A stretch of DNA of 64,000 nt from a virus. Taxonomy: Duplodnaviria; Caudoviricetes. Position 1 is the stretch's first letter. Every line of letters begins with the position of its first letter. Location: positions 6,507 to 70,506 of IMG/VR virus record IMGVR_UViG_2700988937_000001; one strand, written 5' to 3'. Positions 2-8,756 of this stretch are shown here, one piece after another. The notes below the pieces were generated by a model. That model was not told the origin of the DNA. It saw nothing but the letters and a program-made list of their open reading frames with translations, and did not search any database. The translations under genes were made by a program, and so were the position numbers.

Positions 2-364
2 GGTAACGCAGAAGTCATGGCTGAGATCAATGTCGTGTGTCTGTTCGATGATCCGATGCCAAAGAATCGTGACGCTGAAATCCAAGAAGTTGTACTTTTG
101 GATTCCTCGAACCTGATTCTGAAAAGCATGGCTGTCGCAAAATTGCGAAAGTTGGGTTGGCAGTTCCCGACAGTTGATGCTTTTGGCAATCCGTTGACAG
201 ATGACGATATTGCAGCGATGTTGATTCAACAACAAGCCGCTCTGGCTGCTGCAATGGACCCGTTCTCAGCTAGCCTCGCTGGCGGGAATCCCGAGGAAAC
301 TTCTGATCAGTCCGAAGGCAACACACCCGATGACCAGACCATAGATCTTGGGGTGACCGGGTAA
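2..364 (+). CDS. Portal protein, C-terminal part (5'-truncated by window edge)
   Basis: The frame is open from position 2. 'FDDPMPKNRDAEIQE...' followed by an acidic low-complexity tail is typical of SPP1-like portal C-termini. It lies upstream of the head genes. Confidence 0.65.
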   Translation, partial: GNAEVMAEINVVCLFDDPMPKNRDAEIQEVVLLDSSNLILKSMAVAKLRKLGWQFPTVDAFGNPLTDDDIAAMLIQQQAALAAAMDPFSASLAGGNPEETSDQSEGNTPDDQTIDLGVTG

Positions 365-374
365 GATCGGGGCT

Positions 375-488
375 GTGGCCCGTATAGGTAGGCGTAAACG
401 TCGTCGCTTTTCGGTGATGACGAAATTTGTCTCGACCAAATACGGGAGCAAGGTAAAACTGGTGATTCCCGGACTAAGGAAAAGATGA
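375..488 (+). CDS. Small basic protein (37 aa, MARIGRRKRRRFSVMTKFVSTKYGSKVKLVIPGLRKR), not in ORF track
   Basis: Manual translation from GTG at 375. Its TGA overlaps the next ATG (ATGA). Composition matches the neighbouring basic proteins. Confidence 0.55.
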   Translation: MARIGRRKRRRFSVMTKFVSTKYGSKVKLVIPGLRKR

Positions 489-580
489 TGGATTATCAGT
501 TCGCCTGGACGTGGTTCGTCCTCAATCATATCTTGGTGCATTTTCTTCGTGAGATTGGCGAGGCGATGCATCATGATTAA
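485..580 (+). CDS. Small hydrophobic protein (31 aa, MMDYQFAWTWFVLNHILVHFLREIGEAMHHD), not in ORF track
   Basis: TAAGGA RBS upstream; ATGA overlap with the previous ORF; fills the gap before 596. Confidence 0.45.
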   Translation: MMDYQFAWTWFVLNHILVHFLREIGEAMHHD

Positions 581-595
581 TACGGGAGCCGACGC

Positions 596-793
596 ATGGC
601 CGGGAAAAAGAAAAAGCGCGGTACGTACCGGGGCTTCAAGAGCAAAAAGCAGTGGCGTTGGGCTTTCGCAACCAAGCAACCTTGGGCGCGTGAGAAAGCC
701 CATAAAACCAAGGGCGGCAAAAAGATAAGATATCGCCGTTTGCCTGAGTCAAAACATAGCGGTAAAAAAGGATCGCGTAGAAGGAAACGGTAG
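596..793 (+). CDS. Small highly basic protein
   Basis: 65 aa, K/R-rich; GGGAG RBS; abuts the next gene. Confidence 0.75.
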   Translation: MAGKKKKRGTYRGFKSKKQWRWAFATKQPWAREKAHKTKGGKKIRYRRLPESKHSGKKGSRRRKR

Positions 794-1216
794 ATGGCAA
801 GGGGCATGACTGCGCGTCAACGCGCAGCGCTGAAAAAGGCCCAAGCTGCAAGCGCAAGAAAACGCAGAGGTAAGGGCAAAGGAAAACTTGCTGCTGCTAA
901 TCGCAAGTTGGATTCCCGCAAGCGTCGTACTCGCAAAGCTCTGAAAATCGGTGTCGCCACTGCTGCTGTTGGTGGCGTCGCTTACGGAGCATATCGAGGA
1001 AACTCTATTCGTAATCGTAAAAACGCTGCGATCAAAGAAGCGAAGACGATTCAAAAGAAGCATCGCGACAACTTCCGAAAAGCTGTTGCTGATTCCAAAG
1101 CTGATCCTCATAACAAGAGAAAGAAAACTCTTGTCAGAGTGCATCGGCGTTCTTTGCGAATCGCGAGTGCCCGAAGCGTTCACAGAGCGATTATCAAGCA
1201 ACATACAGGACGATAA
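794..1216 (+). CDS. Basic leader-motif family protein 1
   Basis: MTARQRAALKKAQAASARKRR leader followed by a Gly/Ala hydrophobic segment. Confidence 0.85.
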   Translation: MARGMTARQRAALKKAQAASARKRRGKGKGKLAAANRKLDSRKRRTRKALKIGVATAAVGGVAYGAYRGNSIRNRKNAAIKEAKTIQKKHRDNFRKAVADSKADPHNKRKKTLVRVHRRSLRIASARSVHRAIIKQHTGR

Positions 1217-1438
1217 ATGAGACGCAGCGCACGCCAACGTGCAGCATCCCGGCGAAACCTGATTAAGGCTCGTCGGGTACGTGCTCATGACACCTGGACG
1301 CATTGGGGCAAAAAGGGTCTTAGCGCAATGGTTTCCACGGCTACTTTTGGTACCGGAAACAAGGCGAACACGTGGATTTCTGGGAACTACAGAAAGAAAC
1401 CGAGCAAGCTTTTCAAAGACCGTTCTAAGAGGCGCTGA
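1217..1438 (+). CDS. Basic protein with a divergent leader (SARQRAASRRNL)
   Basis: Tightly packed in the operon; partial match to the leader motif. Confidence 0.75.
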   Translation: MRRSARQRAASRRNLIKARRVRAHDTWTHWGKKGLSAMVSTATFGTGNKANTWISGNYRKKPSKLFKDRSKRR

Positions 1439-1980
1439 TGGCGAAAAACAAGCGTGGTCGTCATTATAAAATGACACCCCGGCGTAAGGCCGCTCTGCGC
1501 AAGGCCCAGGCTGCCAGTGCCAGGGCACGTCGTCGGCGCGTTGGCAAGGCGGCTGGCCTGGTGGCCGGTACGATTGCCGCAGGTGCGGTGGCCTACGCTG
1601 CTCACAGAAGTATCGATAATCGAAAAAGAACTGTGCAAACGAGAATGCGTCATGTTGCAGGGGTACGTGCCGCGCACCGACCGAAAAAGTACAGAGGGAC
1701 CAAGGCTTTAGTTCATCTTCCTGGTTTGGGATATACGCATTCTGACCCCAGGAAAACGGTGATTCCCCCAGGATGGGGTCAAGCTCATTTCAGCGCTCCG
1801 AAGAGTATCAAAACTACACCAGAAACAATTTTCAAAGTCTCATCCACTGGCACGGTTTCCCGCACAACGAAAAAGAGAATGATCTACGATCTGAATCGTA
1901 GACGGCAATATTGGCAGGCAAAACCCGTCGGTGGAGCACCACGTAAAAAGTACACTAGCAAAAAGCGAGGTAGGATGTAA
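1438..1980 (+). CDS. Basic leader-motif family protein 2
   Basis: YKMTPRRKAALRKAQAASARARR plus a hydrophobic segment; TGATG overlap. Confidence 0.85.
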   Translation: MAKNKRGRHYKMTPRRKAALRKAQAASARARRRRVGKAAGLVAGTIAAGAVAYAAHRSIDNRKRTVQTRMRHVAGVRAAHRPKKYRGTKALVHLPGLGYTHSDPRKTVIPPGWGQAHFSAPKSIKTTPETIFKVSSTGTVSRTTKKRMIYDLNRRRQYWQAKPVGGAPRKKYTSKKRGRM

Positions 1981-2525
1981 TGGCACGCAGACGTCGCTAT
2001 GGCAGCTTTACTCCTGCGCGCCGCGCTGCTCTGAAAAAGGCGCAACTCGCAAGTGCTCGTAAGCGTCGCCGTGGAATCAGTAAGAAAAAGGCTGTAATCG
2101 GCGCAACCCTCGCTCTGGCGGGTGGAGCCGCTGCGGTTTACGGTTCGAGAAAGTTGCAAACCGTCAATCGCAAGCAAAATGCGATGAAGAAACTTTCGGG
2201 AACTCGCGTGACGCTGACAATCACCAAGCCAATTAGCGGAAGATATTCCAGCTCTGGAATTTCTCGCTCCGGTTTGGGTGTGATGCGGGTTCATCACGGA
2301 TCGCTTACGCAAGGTTTGCGCATTTCCACTATCGGTGGAATGGGAATTTCGGCCTCTACGCTCACCGGCAAAAAGACTCCCAGTCGAGTTCGAAAGATCG
2401 ACAGGGACGCGATTCCGTTCTACGACAAGAATAATAGTCAGAGTTGGCCTAGCAAGCATGGCGGTACGATTGCAAACGTTCGTCGGGTCAATAGGTTAAA
2501 GCGTAAGAAGGGGTTGTTGGAGTAA
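1980..2525 (+). CDS. Basic leader-motif family protein 3
   Basis: FTPARRAALKKAQLASARKRR plus a hydrophobic segment; TAATG overlap. Confidence 0.85.
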   Translation: MARRRRYGSFTPARRAALKKAQLASARKRRRGISKKKAVIGATLALAGGAAAVYGSRKLQTVNRKQNAMKKLSGTRVTLTITKPISGRYSSSGISRSGLGVMRVHHGSLTQGLRISTIGGMGISASTLTGKKTPSRVRKIDRDAIPFYDKNNSQSWPSKHGGTIANVRRVNRLKRKKGLLE

Positions 2526-3412
2526 TGGCAAAGCGTCGTTATCGCGGTCCCTACAAAATGACCGCTCGTCGTCGGTATGCCTTGAAAAAGGCTCAAGAGG
2601 CGTCGGCCAAAAAGCGTAGGAAGAACGCGATCAAGAAAATCGGTGCTGCTGCTGGCGCAATCGGTGGACTTGCTGTTGCCGGTTACCTGGGGCACCGCTA
2701 CGGAAGCGCAAAAATCCAGCAATCCGTGAAGAACAATCGGATCAAGGTAATGACTGCGCATCGTGGTAAAGTCGTGCAACTCAACGCTGCACGAAAAGCA
2801 GTTCAGCCAGGGGCAAAAGAAGCGACTCGCGTAGCTAGCGCTATTTCTGTTGCGCACCCCAGCCGCACAACAATCACTGCTAGTGATCGGGCACGCGCAG
2901 AAAGCGTTCGCAGCAAGCTCAAAAAGCAGTCGATGCCGCCGATTTACGATTCGACCGGCAGGAACATTGGTGGTCCTGATCGTCGTTCTTACGACGAAGA
3001 CAACAACATTCGCTCTGAGGCGATGACAAATCGTTCTGTTCGCAGAACTTTGAAGCAATCGAAAAAGAACACTCAGGGCAAAAAGACAGGCTCACTCAAG
3101 GGAACTCCCGGTGGTACGAAAACGCCGCCCAAGGCAATTCCGCATCGTCCAGAAACTTGGAAAGACGATGATTGGGCCGCAGCGCTGGCCTTCGATACGC
3201 CTACGCGACAGCCGCTTTCAGGCGGCTCGTCCGGTAAGGGCCGCGGAACTACGGGAACGCCACGACGCGATCCTTTGCACACGCTTGCAAAGATGCGTTA
3301 CGACGACGCAAAACTTCTGGGATCGGGTGCTCCTGGCGCCGGTGACACAGATGCGTTTTTGCGAAATGCGGGAACTTCGCGATCTACTCCGAGACGACCA
3401 AAAAAAGCGTAA
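2525..3412 (+). CDS. Basic leader-motif family protein 4 (possible -1 frameshift extension to 3621)
   Basis: YKMTARRRYALKKAQEASAKKRR plus a hydrophobic segment; ends CCA AAA AAA GCG TAA followed by a hairpin. Confidence 0.85.
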   Translation: MAKRRYRGPYKMTARRRYALKKAQEASAKKRRKNAIKKIGAAAGAIGGLAVAGYLGHRYGSAKIQQSVKNNRIKVMTAHRGKVVQLNAARKAVQPGAKEATRVASAISVAHPSRTTITASDRARAESVRSKLKKQSMPPIYDSTGRNIGGPDRRSYDEDNNIRSEAMTNRSVRRTLKQSKKNTQGKKTGSLKGTPGGTKTPPKAIPHRPETWKDDDWAAALAFDTPTRQPLSGGSSGKGRGTTGTPRRDPLHTLAKMRYDDAKLLGSGAPGAGDTDAFLRNAGTSRSTPRRPKKA

Positions 3413-3613
3413 GCCCTTCGGGGCTTGGCGCTGGGTCAAAAGCTATTTATAGCGCTTCTCACGGAAGATCGTTGGAGAGAACTGAATACAAAGTCAATAT
3501 TGTAAAGGCTCATGCCAATGGGAAATACGATATTGAGTGGTCTTACGACTGGAACGGTAAAAAGGTTACCAACCGGAGAAAAAATGTTTCGGGTAGACGA
3601 ATAAGGGGTCTTG

Positions 3614-3964
3614 ATGGCTAGACGATACAGAATGACCCCTCGTAGACGCGCTGCTTTGAAAAAGGCTCAGGCCGCATCTGCAAGAAAGCGAAGGCGTAAT
3701 CGTGTCAAGTCTATTGCCAGAACTGTTGGCACTGGCGCTGCTTTTGTTGGCAGCACTTTTGCTGCATATCACCTGAACCGCTACATCGTGAATCCGCATC
3801 ATGCGGTTCGTGAAGGCGCGGCTGCTGGAAAGGCGATTGGCAAGGGTGCAACTTCACTCACTCGCAAAGTGAAAAAGAAGCCCGTGCGACGCACGAGTGA
3901 AATCAAACGTTCGGTGAAGACCGTGAAAAAGGCAACTGACTGGTCTAAGTTCGGATACCTGTAA
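3614..3964 (+). CDS. Basic leader-motif family protein 5
   Basis: YRMTPRRRAALKKAQAASARKRR; AAGGGG RBS before ATG 3614. Confidence 0.85.
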   Translation: MARRYRMTPRRRAALKKAQAASARKRRRNRVKSIARTVGTGAAFVGSTFAAYHLNRYIVNPHHAVREGAAAGKAIGKGATSLTRKVKKKPVRRTSEIKRSVKTVKKATDWSKFGYL

Positions 3965-4569
3965 TGGCGAAGCGACCTTATGTAATGACGCCTGCGCGAA
4001 AAGCTGCATTGCGCAAGGCGCAATTGGCATCTGCAAAAGCGCGCAAGGGAAAGCGTAAGGCTGGTACTCGTCGTCATTATAGCTCTAATCCGTACAAGCG
4101 CGGCGTAGGCGTGGCGGGTTTGAAGAAAAACACAGTTCCGTACGCACGCATTAACCAAAAATCGGGAACTATCGGTGTCAACAGTGGCACGATTATTCCG
4201 TTCACCGGCAAGCGCATTTCTTTCGGCGGATACGTTCGTGTTGAAAATCGCACGAAGCCAATCAGTGCGACCCAGACAAAAATTGCCAATAAGATTGCTC
4301 GTAAAGGATCTAAGCCTGGGGCTGTCAGAAGTTGGTTCAACGATAACGTAATCGTTCAGTCTCCTGCTGTGCGTGCTAATGTTGGTGGTGCGCAAGTAAG
4401 GCTGGGAACCTCTAGAAGTGCGGGTTCTACTGTCATTGTCCGTAAAGGTTCCCATAAAACAGTCCAAAAGAAATCAGTTGCAGGAGTCAGAAAGTATGAC
4501 CGACGGATGAGAACTATTGCGGGGCAACAGGTAAAAAAGAAGAAAAAGCGTCCCCAGCGAAGAGGCTAA
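3964..4569 (+). CDS. Basic leader-motif family protein 6
   Basis: YVMTPARKAALRKAQLASAKARK; the body is rich in beta-forming residues. Confidence 0.85.
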   Translation: MAKRPYVMTPARKAALRKAQLASAKARKGKRKAGTRRHYSSNPYKRGVGVAGLKKNTVPYARINQKSGTIGVNSGTIIPFTGKRISFGGYVRVENRTKPISATQTKIANKIARKGSKPGAVRSWFNDNVIVQSPAVRANVGGAQVRLGTSRSAGSTVIVRKGSHKTVQKKSVAGVRKYDRRMRTIAGQQVKKKKKRPQRRG

Positions 4570-4572
4570 AAT

Positions 4573-5013
4573 ATGACAGACGTGGATAACCCGGCCTCAC
4601 CAAGCCACAGAAATCATCTGATTTCAACAAACGGGAAACGCGCCGTTCTAATAGAGCCAGAAATCCCACTCTTAGAATCAACAGTTTCACAACTGCTGGA
4701 AGAGTTGGACGGGCACTATTTGGAGCGGTGCGGTTTCATATCCAAGCACGAACAAAATATCTACCCCGTTCACAACGCGCACGAGTTCGCGTCCATGAAT
4801 TTCTATATGGACGAAGACGATGCTGTAGAAGCCATTCGCAATATCTATGATCGTGATCATGATGAAATCATGGGGATTTATCATACGCATCCGAATGGTT
4901 ACCCTTGGCCGTCACCACGAGACATCTTGGGATGGCCGAAAGTAGAACTTGGGTGGCGTTACTTTTTGGTTTCACGGGGGAATGTCACGGAGTGGAGGCT
5001 CATAAGTGACTAG
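4573..5013 (+). CDS. JAB/MPN+ (JAMM) metalloprotease
   Basis: N-terminal ERCG (catalytic Glu) and the HxHx7SxxD motif YHTHPNGYPWPSPRD. Confidence 0.85.
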   Translation: MTDVDNPASPSHRNHLISTNGKRAVLIEPEIPLLESTVSQLLEELDGHYLERCGFISKHEQNIYPVHNAHEFASMNFYMDEDDAVEAIRNIYDRDHDEIMGIYHTHPNGYPWPSPRDILGWPKVELGWRYFLVSRGNVTEWRLISD

Positions 5014-5920
5014 TCCTACCCCTCATGATCGCGCAGACGATTACATGGAGCTTAGAAAACGATGGTTGAACAGATACGCACGGGTTCAGGCTCAGGCCGA
5101 CAAGAAACTCCGGGATGCTCTTATTCAAGCAGCGGAAGATGCGTACAAACAATTGATATCGGAGACTTCAAAAAGCACGTTTTCGGCACATGTGAAAAGT
5201 GCCCAAATCCGCATCCTGCTAAAGGAAATTAGGGGTATCCTTGATGACCTCTTCGGAGAAGAACTCAAAATTATCCATCTTGGACAATCAGACGCAGCTA
5301 TCGCCGCTGTCATGGCGTTCGCCGACACAGATCGAGATTACCTTAACGCCGTTTTCAAAGCCTCCGGAGGAAACACAGCAGATTTTATTGAAGGGCAAAA
5401 ACGTTCGGCTGTTACCGGGGTCGCCCACGCAATTTCCCGATTCGCAAAAACTGATAAAAGCCTATCGCAAAGAGTGTACGATACACGTGCCCTTGCAAAC
5501 GGATGGGTTAAACAGCGAGTTACTTCACATATTATTCGGGGAACGGGCGCAAAAGAACTTGCAAGGGATGTTCGCAAGTTTATCAAACCGAATACGCCTG
5601 GCGGGGTTAGCTACGCAGCGATGCGTCTTGCGCGCACAGAAATTAATAATGCGTTTCACGCGACGAGTGTCGCACTTGCAGAAGATCGACCCTGGGTAGA
5701 GGGAATGCGCTGGAATCTCAGCGCAACGCATTTGACAAAGAAGCACGATAACTGTTTGTGCGAAAGATACGCTGGTCAAATCTTTTCTATCGGAGACGTG
5801 CCAGGAAAGCCGCACCCACAATGTCGGTGTTTCGTCACGCCTCAAGTCGAATCATTGGACGTCTTTATGCGTCACTTGACGAGTGGACAATTTAGGAGTT
5901 GGATAAGTGAAGCAGCATAA
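5006..5920 (+). CDS. MuF/SPP1 gp7-like minor head protein
   Basis: RLARTE and PHPQCRC motifs; located in the head module. Confidence 0.85.
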   Translation: MTSPTPHDRADDYMELRKRWLNRYARVQAQADKKLRDALIQAAEDAYKQLISETSKSTFSAHVKSAQIRILLKEIRGILDDLFGEELKIIHLGQSDAAIAAVMAFADTDRDYLNAVFKASGGNTADFIEGQKRSAVTGVAHAISRFAKTDKSLSQRVYDTRALANGWVKQRVTSHIIRGTGAKELARDVRKFIKPNTPGGVSYAAMRLARTEINNAFHATSVALAEDRPWVEGMRWNLSATHLTKKHDNCLCERYAGQIFSIGDVPGKPHPQCRCFVTPQVESLDVFMRHLTSGQFRSWISEAA

Positions 5921-5942: not shown

Positions 5943-6728
5943 GTGTCTGAGAACATTTCTTTCCCGTGGAGCAAGCGAATGGACCCGATGTTTTCTGTGA
6001 ACGCAGAGGAAATCGCGAAGCGAGTTCTGCCCATCTTCGGTGGTACCTCCCCCGAAACTACGAGCACGGAGACCGCGCAGACCACGCAGACTCCGCAGAC
6101 TGAAAAGAAGGACGAAGAGAAGTCTTCAGATTCGGGCAAGAGCGAGCCGCAGAAAAAGGAATACTCGCCCGAAGAAGTCTCGTCGATTCTTGAACAGGTC
6201 GCAGAAACTCAGGCCAAGCTCGAAGAAGCAACTAAGAAACTCAAGACTTTTGAGTCTGAGCAGGAAAAGCAAAAGCGCGCTGCGATGAGCAAGGAAGAAG
6301 CGCTTCAGGCTGATTATGAGCAGGCTCAGCAGATCATCGTTAAGCTTGACGCTGCTCTGAAAAATCAAGCTGTGATCAATGCGATCAATGGTTTCAAGGA
6401 CATTCAGTTCCATGACACGAAGTTTGTTCTGAACGAACTGAAGAATTCCGCCCCCGAGATTTTCGAAGACATGGAAGTCGATTTGGACGGCGGAACGGTT
6501 ACTGTTTCGGGTGTGGAAAATCACCTTCGCAGGATTGCCAAGGAAAAGGATTGGGCAGTCAAGAAAATTTCGACTCCCGAAAATTCGAATCAACATCAAA
6601 ATCCGACCCCGGTTCCTCGTGGGTCGGGTGCTCCCCCGGCTAACCCCGGTCTCAGCGGTGACAAGGCGACACGACGCAAGGCTCTCGCTGAGAAGTTCCC
6701 CGTGATCAGTCATGGACGTAGGCTGTGA
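5943..6728 (+). CDS. Capsid scaffolding protein
   Basis: Acidic, coiled-coil, with a Pro-rich C-terminus; upstream of the capsid genes. GAAGGA RBS before GTG 5943 (ORF track start 5907). Confidence 0.75.
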   Translation: MSENISFPWSKRMDPMFSVNAEEIAKRVLPIFGGTSPETTSTETAQTTQTPQTEKKDEEKSSDSGKSEPQKKEYSPEEVSSILEQVAETQAKLEEATKKLKTFESEQEKQKRAAMSKEEALQADYEQAQQIIVKLDAALKNQAVINAINGFKDIQFHDTKFVLNELKNSAPEIFEDMEVDLDGGTVTVSGVENHLRRIAKEKDWAVKKISTPENSNQHQNPTPVPRGSGAPPANPGLSGDKATRRKALAEKFPVISHGRRL

Positions 6729-6805: not shown

Positions 6806-7504
6806 ATGGCGCTTAAGACCAAGCCGCGCTGGGACAAGTACGACGGCTACGTTGGCAACTACCGGGGCGTCCTCGGTGAGGACATCGACCTGGACACCGA
6901 AGCGAACCGAGTTTTGGCAGTCGGCACAAATTCGAACGGCGCTATTGTTGTTGGTGCCGGTCAAACCGGAATCAAGGGTTTGATGATTGTTGCTGTCGGC
7001 GCTGACATTCACGGTGCGATGCTTGACGGTGGAATCAACAACCATGCGGGTGATCCGCAGGATGTCGGAAAGCACGGCGAAATCACGAATTTCCAACCGA
7101 CGGTTTTCGGACGAACCTTCGGAGTTGCGATTTCCGCAACCGAAGGAAACGTGAAGTTGGCCGTGAATGGTGTTGACACCGGAAACATCGCCTACGACAC
7201 ATCCGCTGCAAATCTGAAGTCGGGCATTGTTGCAGTCGATGACGGTTTTACTGCGGATGATTTTACGGTGACCGGTACGGCTCCGAATTTCACTATCGTT
7301 ACGACTCGAACTGACGTTACGATCACTGCTTCCGGTGAAGGTGTGACCGTTACCGAAGCAACTTCGGTTGCTGCGGCTGGCACGAATTACTACGGCCACG
7401 CGGACGGAACTGTAAATGCCGTCAAGGGTTCTGACGGTGTTTATGTCGGTCACACCCAAGAGGCTGATCGACTCATCGTGAACGTCAAGGACGAAGAAGA
7501 CTAG
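6806..7504 (+). CDS. Capsid accessory/decoration protein
   Basis: Gly/Thr/Val-rich beta-type protein between scaffold and MCP; GGAGG RBS. Confidence 0.65.
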   Translation: MALKTKPRWDKYDGYVGNYRGVLGEDIDLDTEANRVLAVGTNSNGAIVVGAGQTGIKGLMIVAVGADIHGAMLDGGINNHAGDPQDVGKHGEITNFQPTVFGRTFGVAISATEGNVKLAVNGVDTGNIAYDTSAANLKSGIVAVDDGFTADDFTVTGTAPNFTIVTTRTDVTITASGEGVTVTEATSVAAAGTNYYGHADGTVNAVKGSDGVYVGHTQEADRLIVNVKDEED

Positions 7505-7544: not shown

Positions 7545-8756
7545 ATGCCCAATATGGCAACCAAGGAACTGAAGATCGGCGGCGTTCCCGTCTTCCCGAT
7601 CTTTGGTGGAACCGCACCGGTTCGCCAAGAAGGGATAATGACGCAGGGTGACCTTGTAACAGTCACTTCTGACGGCATTGACCTCAACGCTCTGTGGAAT
7701 TCGTTCGCAGAGTCGATTGCCATCTACAACGAAGCGATGGATAACCTTATCCAGCTTTTGACTTATCCGGTCACCGTGCCGGTTGAGCCTGTTGTTCAGA
7801 TCGGCGAAACCACTTTTGAAGAGGCCACGGAGCTTGGCGTTCCGCGTGGTGCCGGTCTGCCCATTGAAGTTTTCCAAATGGGCTACGATCTGCGTCACTA
7901 CGACAAGCGGAATGCCTACTCGTGGATGTTCCTTGCTGATGCGGATGGGCGTCAGGTTGAGGCTATTCACGATGCAGTTCTGTGGGCTGACAAGCGCCTC
8001 GTTTTCCGTAAGGTGATGGAAGCGCTTTTCGACAACCGCACTCGTCGTGCAAACATCCGTAACCAGGCGTACAACGTTTATCCGCTGTACAACGGCGATG
8101 GCGTTCCCCCGCCACGGTTCAAGAACAACGTCTTCGATGAGACGCACTCGCACTACGTGATTTCGCACAACTCCGTTGTCGATTCCAGTGACCTGGAAGA
8201 TTTGATGGAGCTGCTTGCGGAGCACGGTTATTCGCCGCAAGCCGGAACGCAATTCCTGCTGCTGGCGAACAAGGCCGAAACGGATGCGATTCGTCAATTC
8301 CGTCGTGGCGTTGTGAACAACAACGGCGCGACTGCTGGCTACGATTTCATTCCGTCGCCGACGCAGCCCGCGATGATGCTTCCGAATGCCGAAGGTCTTC
8401 TCGGTAATCAGCCTGCACCCACTTTCGGTGGTCTGGCTGTTATCGGTTCCTACGGTTTCTGGAACATCGTGGAAGAGGATTACATTCCTCCCGGCTATCT
8501 CGTCGGTGTTGGTTACGGCGGCGCTTTCAACCTGGGCAACCCGGTTGGTCTGCGCCAACACGCAAATCCCGCGATGCAAGGTTTGCGAATCATCGCCGGT
8601 AACTACCAGCGTTATCCGCTCGTTGACGGTTTCTACGCTCGTAGCTTCGGCACCGGTGTTCGTCAACGCGGTGGTGCGGCGATCATGCAAATCAAGGCCA
8701 GCGGCGCTTACGAGTGCCCGCCGATTTACAAGAAGGGCGGGGGCTTCCTCGTCTAA
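7545..8756 (+). CDS. Major capsid protein
   Basis: 403 aa, strong codon bias, position after scaffold and accessory genes; the start may be ATG 7554. Confidence 0.85.
   Translation: MPNMATKELKIGGVPVFPIFGGTAPVRQEGIMTQGDLVTVTSDGIDLNALWNSFAESIAIYNEAMDNLIQLLTYPVTVPVEPVVQIGETTFEEATELGVPRGAGLPIEVFQMGYDLRHYDKRNAYSWMFLADADGRQVEAIHDAVLWADKRLVFRKVMEALFDNRTRRANIRNQAYNVYPLYNGDGVPPPRFKNNVFDETHSHYVISHNSVVDSSDLEDLMELLAEHGYSPQAGTQFLLLANKAETDAIRQFRRGVVNNNGATAGYDFIPSPTQPAMMLPNAEGLLGNQPAPTFGGLAVIGSYGFWNIVEEDYIPPGYLVGVGYGGAFNLGNPVGLRQHANPAMQGLRIIAGNYQRYPLVDGFYARSFGTGVRQRGGAAIMQIKASGAYECPPIYKKGGGFLV

Follow-up and report, generated by a model that had tools for sequence, protein, structure and literature searches.

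A shared N-terminal leader on a tandem array of hyperbasic virion proteins in the head gene module of Patience-like mycobacteriophages

Introduction

What purpose is served by a tandem array of small, highly basic proteins encoded between the portal and head genes of a mycobacteriophage, and what is the role of the short N-terminal leader common to six of them? The array occupies positions 375 to 4569 of a 64,000-nucleotide stretch of DNA (the window, analyzed here in full) that comprises bases 6507-70506 of a 70,506-bp virus record (IMGVR_UViG_2700988937_000001). Mycobacterium phage Madruga, a member of the species Patiencevirus patience, matches the window at 98.2% identity, and window coordinates plus 6506 equal the gene coordinates in Table 1 of PMC4324244 (Pope et al. 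2014), which describes mycobacteriophage Patience. Through these coordinates window proteins were linked to published Patience proteins, whose names are used throughout. An initial annotation had proposed that the leader is a capsid- or DNA-targeting tag for a set of internal or ejection proteins.

The question concerns a phage with published virion proteomics and a 2.4-Å capsid map that has about ten hyperbasic virion proteins without an assigned place or role. Internal proteins IPI-III and Alt of phage T4 bear a capsid targeting sequence, and to our knowledge internal head proteins with a common address tag are textbook material only for T4-like phages. The evidence assembled here modestly favors the view that the array encodes internal head proteins and that their leader is a modular tag.

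Results

A leader shared by six array proteins

All six plus-strand open reading frames (ORFs) in which a common leader had been noticed matched a leader hidden Markov model (HMM), with E-values from 1e-11 to 5e-29: gp11 (794..1216; 1e-19), gp13 (1438..1980; 1.9e-23), gp14 (1980..2525; 1.4e-25), gp15 (2525..3412; 3.6e-24), gp17 (3614..3964; 5e-29) and gp18 (3964..4569; 1e-11). The leader is about 35 aa long, contains 11 invariant columns in an alignment of the six sequences, and has the core Y-R-M-T-P-x-R-R-A-A-L-K-K-A-Q-x-A-S-A-R-K-R-R. When all stop-to-stop frames of at least 30 aa were scanned on both strands of the 64-kb window, the HMM matched these six ORFs only at E<=10; the whole 70,506-bp genome likewise yielded six matches. 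AlphaFold2 (AF2) modeled the leader as a helix, spanning residues 10-34 in gp18 with predicted local distance difference test (pLDDT) values of up to 86 in this block. The model of the whole gp18 family had a pLDDT of 59.7, too poor for a fold search. ESM Atlas gave generic long-helix look-alikes and no usable feature match, and no solved structure in the PDB matched the leader profile at E<=1. A likeness by eye ('RRxAL') between the leader and the C-terminal helix of the scaffold, suggestive of mimicry, found no support in an hhalign comparison of the two (probability 0.2%).

Within the 21-codon leader core, 57-90% of amino acids but 51-71% of nucleotides are identical, and 149 of the 230 residues identical in pairwise comparisons are encoded by different codons. 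The similarity is thus at the protein level and not that of a DNA repeat. With protein identity above nucleotide identity and differing codons, the leader genes are old paralogues under purifying selection as opposed to a recent repeat. Translational coupling within the array, also part of the initial annotation, is borne out by stop and start codons that overlap or abut (TGATG, TAATG three times, TAAATG and TAGATG). Tblastn searches of a phage collection with gp17 and gp13 returned Madruga and Labelle only; the gp17 alignment starts at residue 38, the leader being unmatched, probably because it was masked as low complexity.

Two of the leader genes have start sites that bear on the leader itself. 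The published start of gp13 corresponds to window position 1471 (MTPRRK...) and omits 11 residues, MAKNKRGRHYK. We favor the start at 1438, which overlaps the gp12 stop codon, because the pre-leader sequence MAKNKRG..Y is conserved in relatives (P0009, P0017 and P0020); the Madruga annotation also uses this long form. In the virus record gp17 starts at ATG 3614, with a TTG present at 3611. A start at MTPRRR gives a mass of 12.13 kDa, versus 12.97 kDa for the coordinate listed in PMC4324244. Table 1 of that paper gives 12.2 kDa, and its available text states that mass spectrometry supports a revised gp17 start. The tabulated mass fits the MTPRRR start and not the listed coordinate, and the revision hints that peptides of the leader region were detected.

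Charge, Gly/Ala segments and bodies

The six leader proteins carry net charges of +30 to +49 (gp11, +40; gp13, +44; gp14, +39; gp15, +46; gp17, +30; gp18, +49). Their neighbors gp111 (375..488, plus strand; 37 aa, net +14) and gp10 (596..793, plus strand; 65 aa, net +26) lack the leader and are K/R-rich mini-proteins, as first described, and gp12 (1217..1438, plus strand; 73 aa) has a net charge of +20. Calculated isoelectric points are 11.4 for gp15 and the calculator ceiling of 12.0 for gp111, gp10-gp14, gp17 and gp18. One copy each of the 11 ORFs of the interval sums to a net charge of +311.

In gp11, gp13, gp14, gp15 and gp17 the leader is followed by an uncharged, Gly/Ala-rich segment of about 18 aa, reached in gp11 through a longer basic linker; gp18 lacks the segment, in agreement with the five of six originally listed. 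Insertion of this segment into the host envelope, which the initial annotation had entertained, is weakened by its predicted energetics. On an approximate translocon free-energy scale, segments of the window scored +3.5 to +6.6 kcal/mol versus -6.2 to +0.4 kcal/mol for hydrophobic segments of other window ORFs, and among the 150 best relatives described below the median was +5.0 kcal/mol with none below 0. With a mean Kyte-Doolittle value of 1.64, the segment is marginally hydrophobic and probably not a classical transmembrane helix. The diglycine found within some of these segments was considered as a protease site and discarded; it is absent from gp13 and gp17 and is not conserved in the relatives read.

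The bodies that follow are mutually unrelated, as had been claimed: no blastp pair fell below E=0.49, and phmmer gave no cross-match at E<=10. Read by eye, they look low in complexity and are probably disordered, as in the 237-aa body of gp15. The gp17 family alignment reveals a conserved C-terminal ..GYL end, and the gp18 body is conserved and strand-rich. No Pfam or NCBIfam family covers any of the six proteins, and no DNA-binding family in either database matched them at E<=0.1. PHROGs returned only unnamed families, plus the label 'head maturation protease' for gp18.

Distribution of the leader among relatives

A profile built from the leader together with the hydrophobic segment was run against a set of 1.84 billion representative proteins. 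The leader proved to extend far outside the window, with 642 representatives matched at E<=1e-3 and 53 at E<=1e-10. The statistics that follow cover the best 150 of the 642 matches. In 149 of these the match lies within the first 10 residues; lengths range from 71 to 332 aa, and the motif was present in 42 of 42 relatives read. Core positions are conserved almost without change (T 99%, R 100%, A 99%, L 97%, K 93%, A 99%, Q 99%, S 99%, A 99%, K 95% and R 99%). Net charge is positive in all 150 (+9 to +60, median +36). An uncharged stretch of at least 14 aa is present in 140, a frequency biased by the inclusion of that segment in the search profile; it has a median length of 18 aa, a Kyte-Doolittle value of 1.64 and 55% Gly+Ala, and it lies about 12 residues after the leader. 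A small-xxx-small-xxx-small pattern occurs in 116 of the 140 segments.

The view of the leader as an element placed on interchangeable bodies gained support: the bodies of 149 relatives fall into 64 clusters, of which 43 are singletons. A Pfam domain was found in a single protein of the 150, P0090, in which the leader and Gly/Ala segment precede an ADPrib_exo_Tox (ADP-ribosyltransferase) domain (9.7e-18). P0090 has an N-terminus in common with P0046 and P0091, consisting of MPRKIGYG.FTPAR... and a Gly/Ala segment. Behind the leader, P0046 and P0091 have a globular domain of about 200 aa that differs from that of P0090 and is unclassified (AF2 pLDDT 54.1). P0025 and P0050 contain two leader copies per polypeptide, by fusion of array genes or a stop missed in gene calling. 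A homologue search for longer fused forms gave three proteins, none new. A pattern scan of 185,579 prokaryote species genomes produced 54 pattern matches, none of them confirmed, which weakly suggests that the leader family is rare in sequenced prophages.

Virion association and published structures

The proposal that array proteins are virion components agrees with published proteomics. The available text of PMC4324244 reports gp111 and gp10-gp18 as particle-associated by high-performance liquid chromatography-tandem mass spectrometry. Furthermore, all genes inserted in the otherwise canonical structural operon, most of them termed orphams, are stated there to have products in particles, with the exception of gp9. 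PMC4324244 nowhere uses the words 'basic', 'arginine' or 'lysine', so the shared leader is not discussed there. The same paper proposes gp15 as one of three major gel bands ('likely correspond') by size alone. That assignment assumed a capsid protein of 35 kDa, versus 41.9 kDa for gp23 starting at Thr-20.

In the available text of PMC7150772, which describes a 5.9-Å capsid, gp15 is taken as a shell protein by elimination, with a predicted model that misfit the density. The 2.4-Å capsid, according to the available text of PMC11965321, has a shell of major capsid protein, trimeric minor capsid protein and gp4; the name 'gp15' is absent from that paper, and PDB entry 8GIU includes gp22 as the minor capsid protein. 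Searches of the PDB revealed no relative of gp15, and the gp18 profile retrieved only ribosome modulation factor (E 0.098). Published particle association together with absence from the solved capsid places the basic proteins in the virion but outside the ordered shell.

Genomic context

Thirty loci in IMG/VR encode a relative. Local searches with window head proteins established the gene order, which in 20 of the 30 runs terminase, portal, gp111, gp10, 1-10 tandem leader ORFs, gp18 body, JAB, MuF, scaffold, gp22-like protein and capsid protein. Leader ORFs in these 20 loci lie after the portal gene and, wherever the locus reaches that far, before JAB and MuF, the exception being one leader ORF between JAB and MuF in L005. 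Leader ORFs number 10 in L017, 9 in L005 and 7 in L012, and one contig has 7 and 4 at its two ends. The JAB gene is always directly downstream of the gp18 body. Cluster H phages Konstantine and Barnyard share this module, in which the HMM recognizes between one and three leader genes. Among 34 other loci scanned, 7 have a gp111 homologue, namely Madruga (L001) and 6 of the 30 on viral contigs. The gp10 family (phrog_1375 at 1e-31) is conserved and is also found in the array-less phages PBI1 and Send513; PBI1 (cluster D, 64.5 kb) has the gp10 homologue alone. Microbacterium phage Krampus (56.7 kb) is without the basic genes and without JAB. Summed net charge from portal to JAB ranges from +26 (PBI1) to +326, with no clean relation between interval charge and genome length among eight named genomes.

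The other 10 loci are without Patience-like head genes. In six that are annotated, the motif is again part of structural modules, but the capsid proteins there (phrog_10 and phrog_1328) are unrelated. Four of the 10 encode a 116-aa protein with the motif at its C-terminus (L026, 3145-3495; L029, 3658-4008; L030, 7737-8087; L034, 3937-4287). In the annotated pair, L026 and L030, its gene is near that of the large terminase; no capsid or portal protein was recognized in either, and Patience proteins detected no head genes.

Alternative leaders and the gp18 family

The initial annotation ascribed a divergent copy of the leader to gp12. A resemblance is visible by eye; descent from the common (type-A) leader is not supported, with no leader HMM match at E<=10 and an hhalign probability of 1.2%. 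Instead, gp12 begins with a second leader type, A(R/K)Q(R/K)AA..(R/K)NL.KAR, that is common to three tandem Send513 genes (gp8-10). Bodies of gp18 from the window and 10 relatives were aligned (n=11), and of these 5 have a leader of type A, 2 have a variant and 4 have the sequence NPxQxRDxxGRW; cluster H orthologues of gp18 begin NPxQxRDRxGRW. Thus, the leader behaves as a modular element, since orthologous gp18 bodies carry different leaders and the same leader stands on at least 64 unrelated body clusters and on an ADP-ribosyltransferase cargo.

The head module recurs in Gordonia phages LittleFella and Wojtek, where the slot holds hyperbasic proteins, often with Gly/Ala segments. Their shared leader is of another type, AWGNALGG(Y/F) followed by RDxxG(R/K)F (L004, 1741-5510; L035, 4008-6871). 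The AWGNALGG half resembles the diglycine motif of capsid and scaffold proteins described below. In Wojtek a 763-aa acidic protein annotated as an esterase (L035, 1541-3832) is encoded between the portal gene and the basic-protein array.

The gp18 family is labeled 'head/capsid maturation protease' in PHROGs (phrog_12708; gp18 match 1e-91) and in several GenBank records (cluster H; homologues at L002, 4716-5489 and L003, 4833-5468). Searches for protease likeness found no Pfam or NCBIfam family and no protease structure in the PDB profile search, and on these sequence comparisons the label looks unfounded.

Neighboring head genes and a diglycine motif

The window opens with the C-terminal end of the portal protein, gp8 (2..364, plus strand), as indicated by a phmmer match to the Madruga portal, a weak match to phrog_533 (portal; E 6.7e-4) and Table 1 of PMC4324244. 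An ORF call of 31 aa, the acidic gp9 (485-580), overlaps the end of gp111. According to the available text of PMC4324244, gp9 is the sole gene of the interval undetected by mass spectrometry, so it may not be a real gene. Between gp15 and gp17 lies gp16 (3472..3621, plus strand), a virion protein of 49 aa listed in Table 1 of the same paper, with a net charge of +6 and no leader. Downstream of the array, all on the plus strand, are gp19, a JAB/MPN+ metalloprotease (4573..5013); gp20, a MuF-like minor head protein (5006..5920; Pfam Phage_Mu_F, 4e-7); gp21, a scaffolding-like protein (5943..6728; phrog_4866 at 8.7e-65); gp22, the trimeric minor capsid protein of the solved shell (6806..7504; full-length match of 1.5e-147 to 8GIU chain 'gp_22 (Minor Capsid Protein)'); and gp23, the major capsid protein (7554..8756; phrog_3990 at 8.7e-175).

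Both gp21 and gp23 have the motif (L/F)PIFGG|T near the N-terminus, with PIFGG|T at residues 30-35 and 15-20, respectively. A non-tryptic gp21 N-terminus at residue 35, after Gly, is reported in the available text of PMC4324244, and the capsid protein model of PMC11965321 is described as beginning at Thr-20; both fall exactly after PIFGG. Conserved forms of it are present in the scaffold and capsid proteins of relatives (WPIFGG, LPFGG, IFGA and similar). PMC4324244 also proposes capsid cleavage at 82/83. This conflicts with the cryo-EM (cryo-electron microscopy) model, in which Thr-20 is the first modeled residue and, as described in PMC11965321, Glu26, Val58 and Val73 are part of the mature capsid structure.

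A candidate enzyme for diglycine cleavage is gp19. It matches Pfam Prok-JAB at 6.8e-10, above the Pfam cut-off, and contains a complete JAMM motif, E...HxHx7Sx2D, with E51, H104, H106, S114 and D117 invariant in 12 sequences. It has further matches to desampylase and Cap3, which are weak and far below family cut-offs (29.9 versus 130 bits and 15.1 versus 200 bits). We take desampylase and Cap3 to be JAB enzymes that cut after Gly-Gly. Judged by its intact JAMM site and these weak matches, gp19 may be a diglycine-specific head protease.

Discussion

Our analysis makes it somewhat probable that gp111, gp10, gp11, gp13-15, gp17, gp18 and gp12 are internal head proteins and that the leader is a modular tag. 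Internal head proteins are the best reading of products that are virion-associated, absent from the ordered shell, encoded by head-module genes, hyperbasic and seemingly disordered in their bodies. Virion association (published), the architecture of the sequences, their conserved synteny and modularity, and absence from the solved shell are shown; placement inside the head, binding to DNA, what the leader does and exit with the DNA are inferred. The proteins would be made late, alongside head proteins, and incorporated in the procapsid; after packaging, they would remain in the head as polycations on DNA. The leader would be an autonomous tag put on unrelated bodies by recombination, and it would direct or retain a protein in the head or itself be the DNA-binding element; both roles, address tag and DNA binding, may hold. 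Its near-invariance suggests a specific partner. Marginal hydrophobicity together with the small-xxx-small pattern in 116 of 140 segments favors helix-helix association among these proteins as the most likely function of the Gly/Ala segment, ahead of ordinary membrane anchoring, and insertion as an oligomer after ejection may also occur. Some cargoes would probably leave with DNA into the host. By analogy with T4 Alt, the ADP-ribosyltransferase-bearing relative suggests that at least some act there.

Several observations weigh against this interpretation. That the motif also accompanies unrelated capsid proteins, and is C-terminal in the 116-aa protein, speaks against a phage-specific docking partner such as scaffold or capsid protein. 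The leader showed no evident cleavage site and no evident link to a protease. The Gly/Ala segment may seem more general among relatives than it is, as the profile that retrieved them contained it. Location within the head is a deduction, and with such basicity the proteins could adhere to capsids or DNA in purification. Moreover, the prominent band ascribed to gp15 may be another protein, given the 35-kDa capsid protein assumed in its assignment.

The first of these points leads to an alternative in which the leader is a generic DNA-binding basic helix and not a capsid address. Its bearers would be protamine- or histone-like condensers, the Gly/Ala segments would pair helices and so cross-link neighboring DNA strands, and procapsid entry would occur by other means, such as attraction to an acidic scaffold. 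A motif that stands beside unrelated capsid proteins (phrog_10 and phrog_1328), near terminase genes and at either terminus fits a generic partner, for which DNA is the obvious candidate, and the positive charge of every one of the 150 best relatives and the frequent small-xxx-small pattern point the same way. By eye, basic residues seem to lie all round the leader helix, and the small-residue pattern Q-x-A-S-A-R-K-R seems to resemble the basic regions of eukaryotic bZIP proteins. This alternative must contend with near-invariance at 11 positions, which is unusual for non-specific DNA binding, and with the lack of any match to DNA-binding families or solved structures at the thresholds given above. 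It also needs a separate loading route, because DNA-bound proteins cannot pass the portal with DNA. We consider it unlikely. The array products might alternatively be ejection (pilot) proteins whose Gly/Ala segments insert in the mycobacterial envelope and form or line a DNA conduit, like T7 internal core proteins or P22 E-proteins, with the leader ordering their exit via portal and tail. Uncharged stretches behind the leader in 140 of the 150 best relatives, the PHROGs name 'membrane protein' for a related family (phrog_19343), disordered bodies able to thread a tail tube and the delivery into the cell implied by the ADP-ribosyltransferase-bearing relative are all in keeping with such a function. 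Set against these are the unfavorable insertion energies in the window and in every one of the 150 relatives on the approximate scale used, strongly basic flanks on both sides of the segment that define no clear topology, the absence of the segment from gp18 and several relatives, and the usual assignment of this role in siphophages to the tape measure protein. An ejection function for the array as a whole is rather improbable in our judgment.

A different account denies the proteins a true structural role and regards them as late nucleic-acid binders, acting on the host nucleoid or on phage DNA prior to packaging, that co-purify with virions by charge. Their extreme charge, the single mass-spectrometry study behind the virion assignment and the fact that none is resolved in the capsid map would be expected of such contaminants. 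Co-purification does not readily explain why all ten (gp111 and gp10-gp18) are reported in particles in the available text of PMC4324244, why the genes occupy a fixed head-module slot in 20 of 30 loci and also in Konstantine, Barnyard and Send513 (type A or A2 leaders) and in Gordonia phages Wojtek and LittleFella (different leader type), or why consecutive array genes adjoin or overlap at their stop and start codons. We regard this account as very unlikely.

A more ambitious form of the preferred interpretation, internal head proteins with a modular tag, can be outlined, although it is speculative and probably wrong in at least some part. Leader and Gly/Ala zipper would together make up a 'basic-zipper' module found across phages with several unrelated capsid proteins. 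The zipper would oligomerize the paralogues into a protamine-like network by which a supersized T=7 shell holds 70.5 kb, and interchangeable cargo, including enzymes, would be carried into the host; the whole would constitute a general, previously undescribed cargo-loading and DNA-condensing system of siphophage heads. The charge arithmetic is that one copy of each protein contributes +311 versus 141,012 phosphates, such that about 100 copies of each would offset about 22%.

Virion association of these proteins was already known, as reported in the available text of PMC4324244. New are the leader common to the six proteins, the extent of its distribution, the conservation of the genomic slot, the exchange of leaders between orthologous bodies and the enzyme cargo. 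In literature searches neither the motif nor a family made up of these proteins was found described, and the motif strings searched occurred in no paper. The tag is found in hundreds of uncultured relatives. If it directs encapsidation, it would be a ready handle with which to load foreign proteins into mycobacteriophage heads. If the proteins neutralize DNA charge, they would be relevant to the ability of an enlarged T=7 shell to accommodate 70.5 kb.

Comparison with known systems reveals partial likeness to several. Adenovirus core proteins VII, V and mu, and protamines, are likewise Arg/Lys-rich and comprise several species packed with double-stranded DNA in the capsid; adenovirus, however, belongs to another virus lineage, and the likeness to Patience proteins is one of composition, with DNA condensation here putative. 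The proteins gp7, gp16 and gp20 of P22 and gp14-16 of T7 are internal virion proteins with hydrophobic segments. Unlike the array products, these ejection proteins are large, not hyperbasic and without a common leader; for the Patience segments, insertion as a classical transmembrane helix is not predicted. MuF-linked effectors and polyvalent proteins, as presented in the available text of PMC5512222, resemble the array in having variable cargo genes beside those for portal and MuF, with products that presumably are packaged and reach the host along with the DNA. Patience cargo differs in not being fused to MuF (gp20 is a separate gene, and none of the six proteins has a MuF match), in having a separate short leader as the common element, and in consisting mostly of disordered polycations as opposed to enzymes (149 of the 150 best relatives are without a Pfam domain).

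Functionally, T4 internal proteins with their capsid targeting sequence are the closest system, by analogy and not by homology. No sequence link to IPI-III or Alt was found in Pfam, PHROG or NCBIfam. The Patience leader, at about 35 aa, is hyperbasic, is followed by a Gly/Ala segment and has undergone tandem expansion, unlike its T4 counterpart. The phages differ as well: the siphophage Patience has a capsid of HK97 fold and encodes a JAB metalloprotease, and the myophage T4 has a gp21-type protease. Alt, an ADP-ribosyltransferase like the domain in leader-bearing relative P0090, is described in the available text of PMC5512222 as packaged in the head and injected. IPI-III and Alt share with the array the same overall design: several small basic head proteins with unrelated bodies, a common short N-terminal sequence and genes in the head region.

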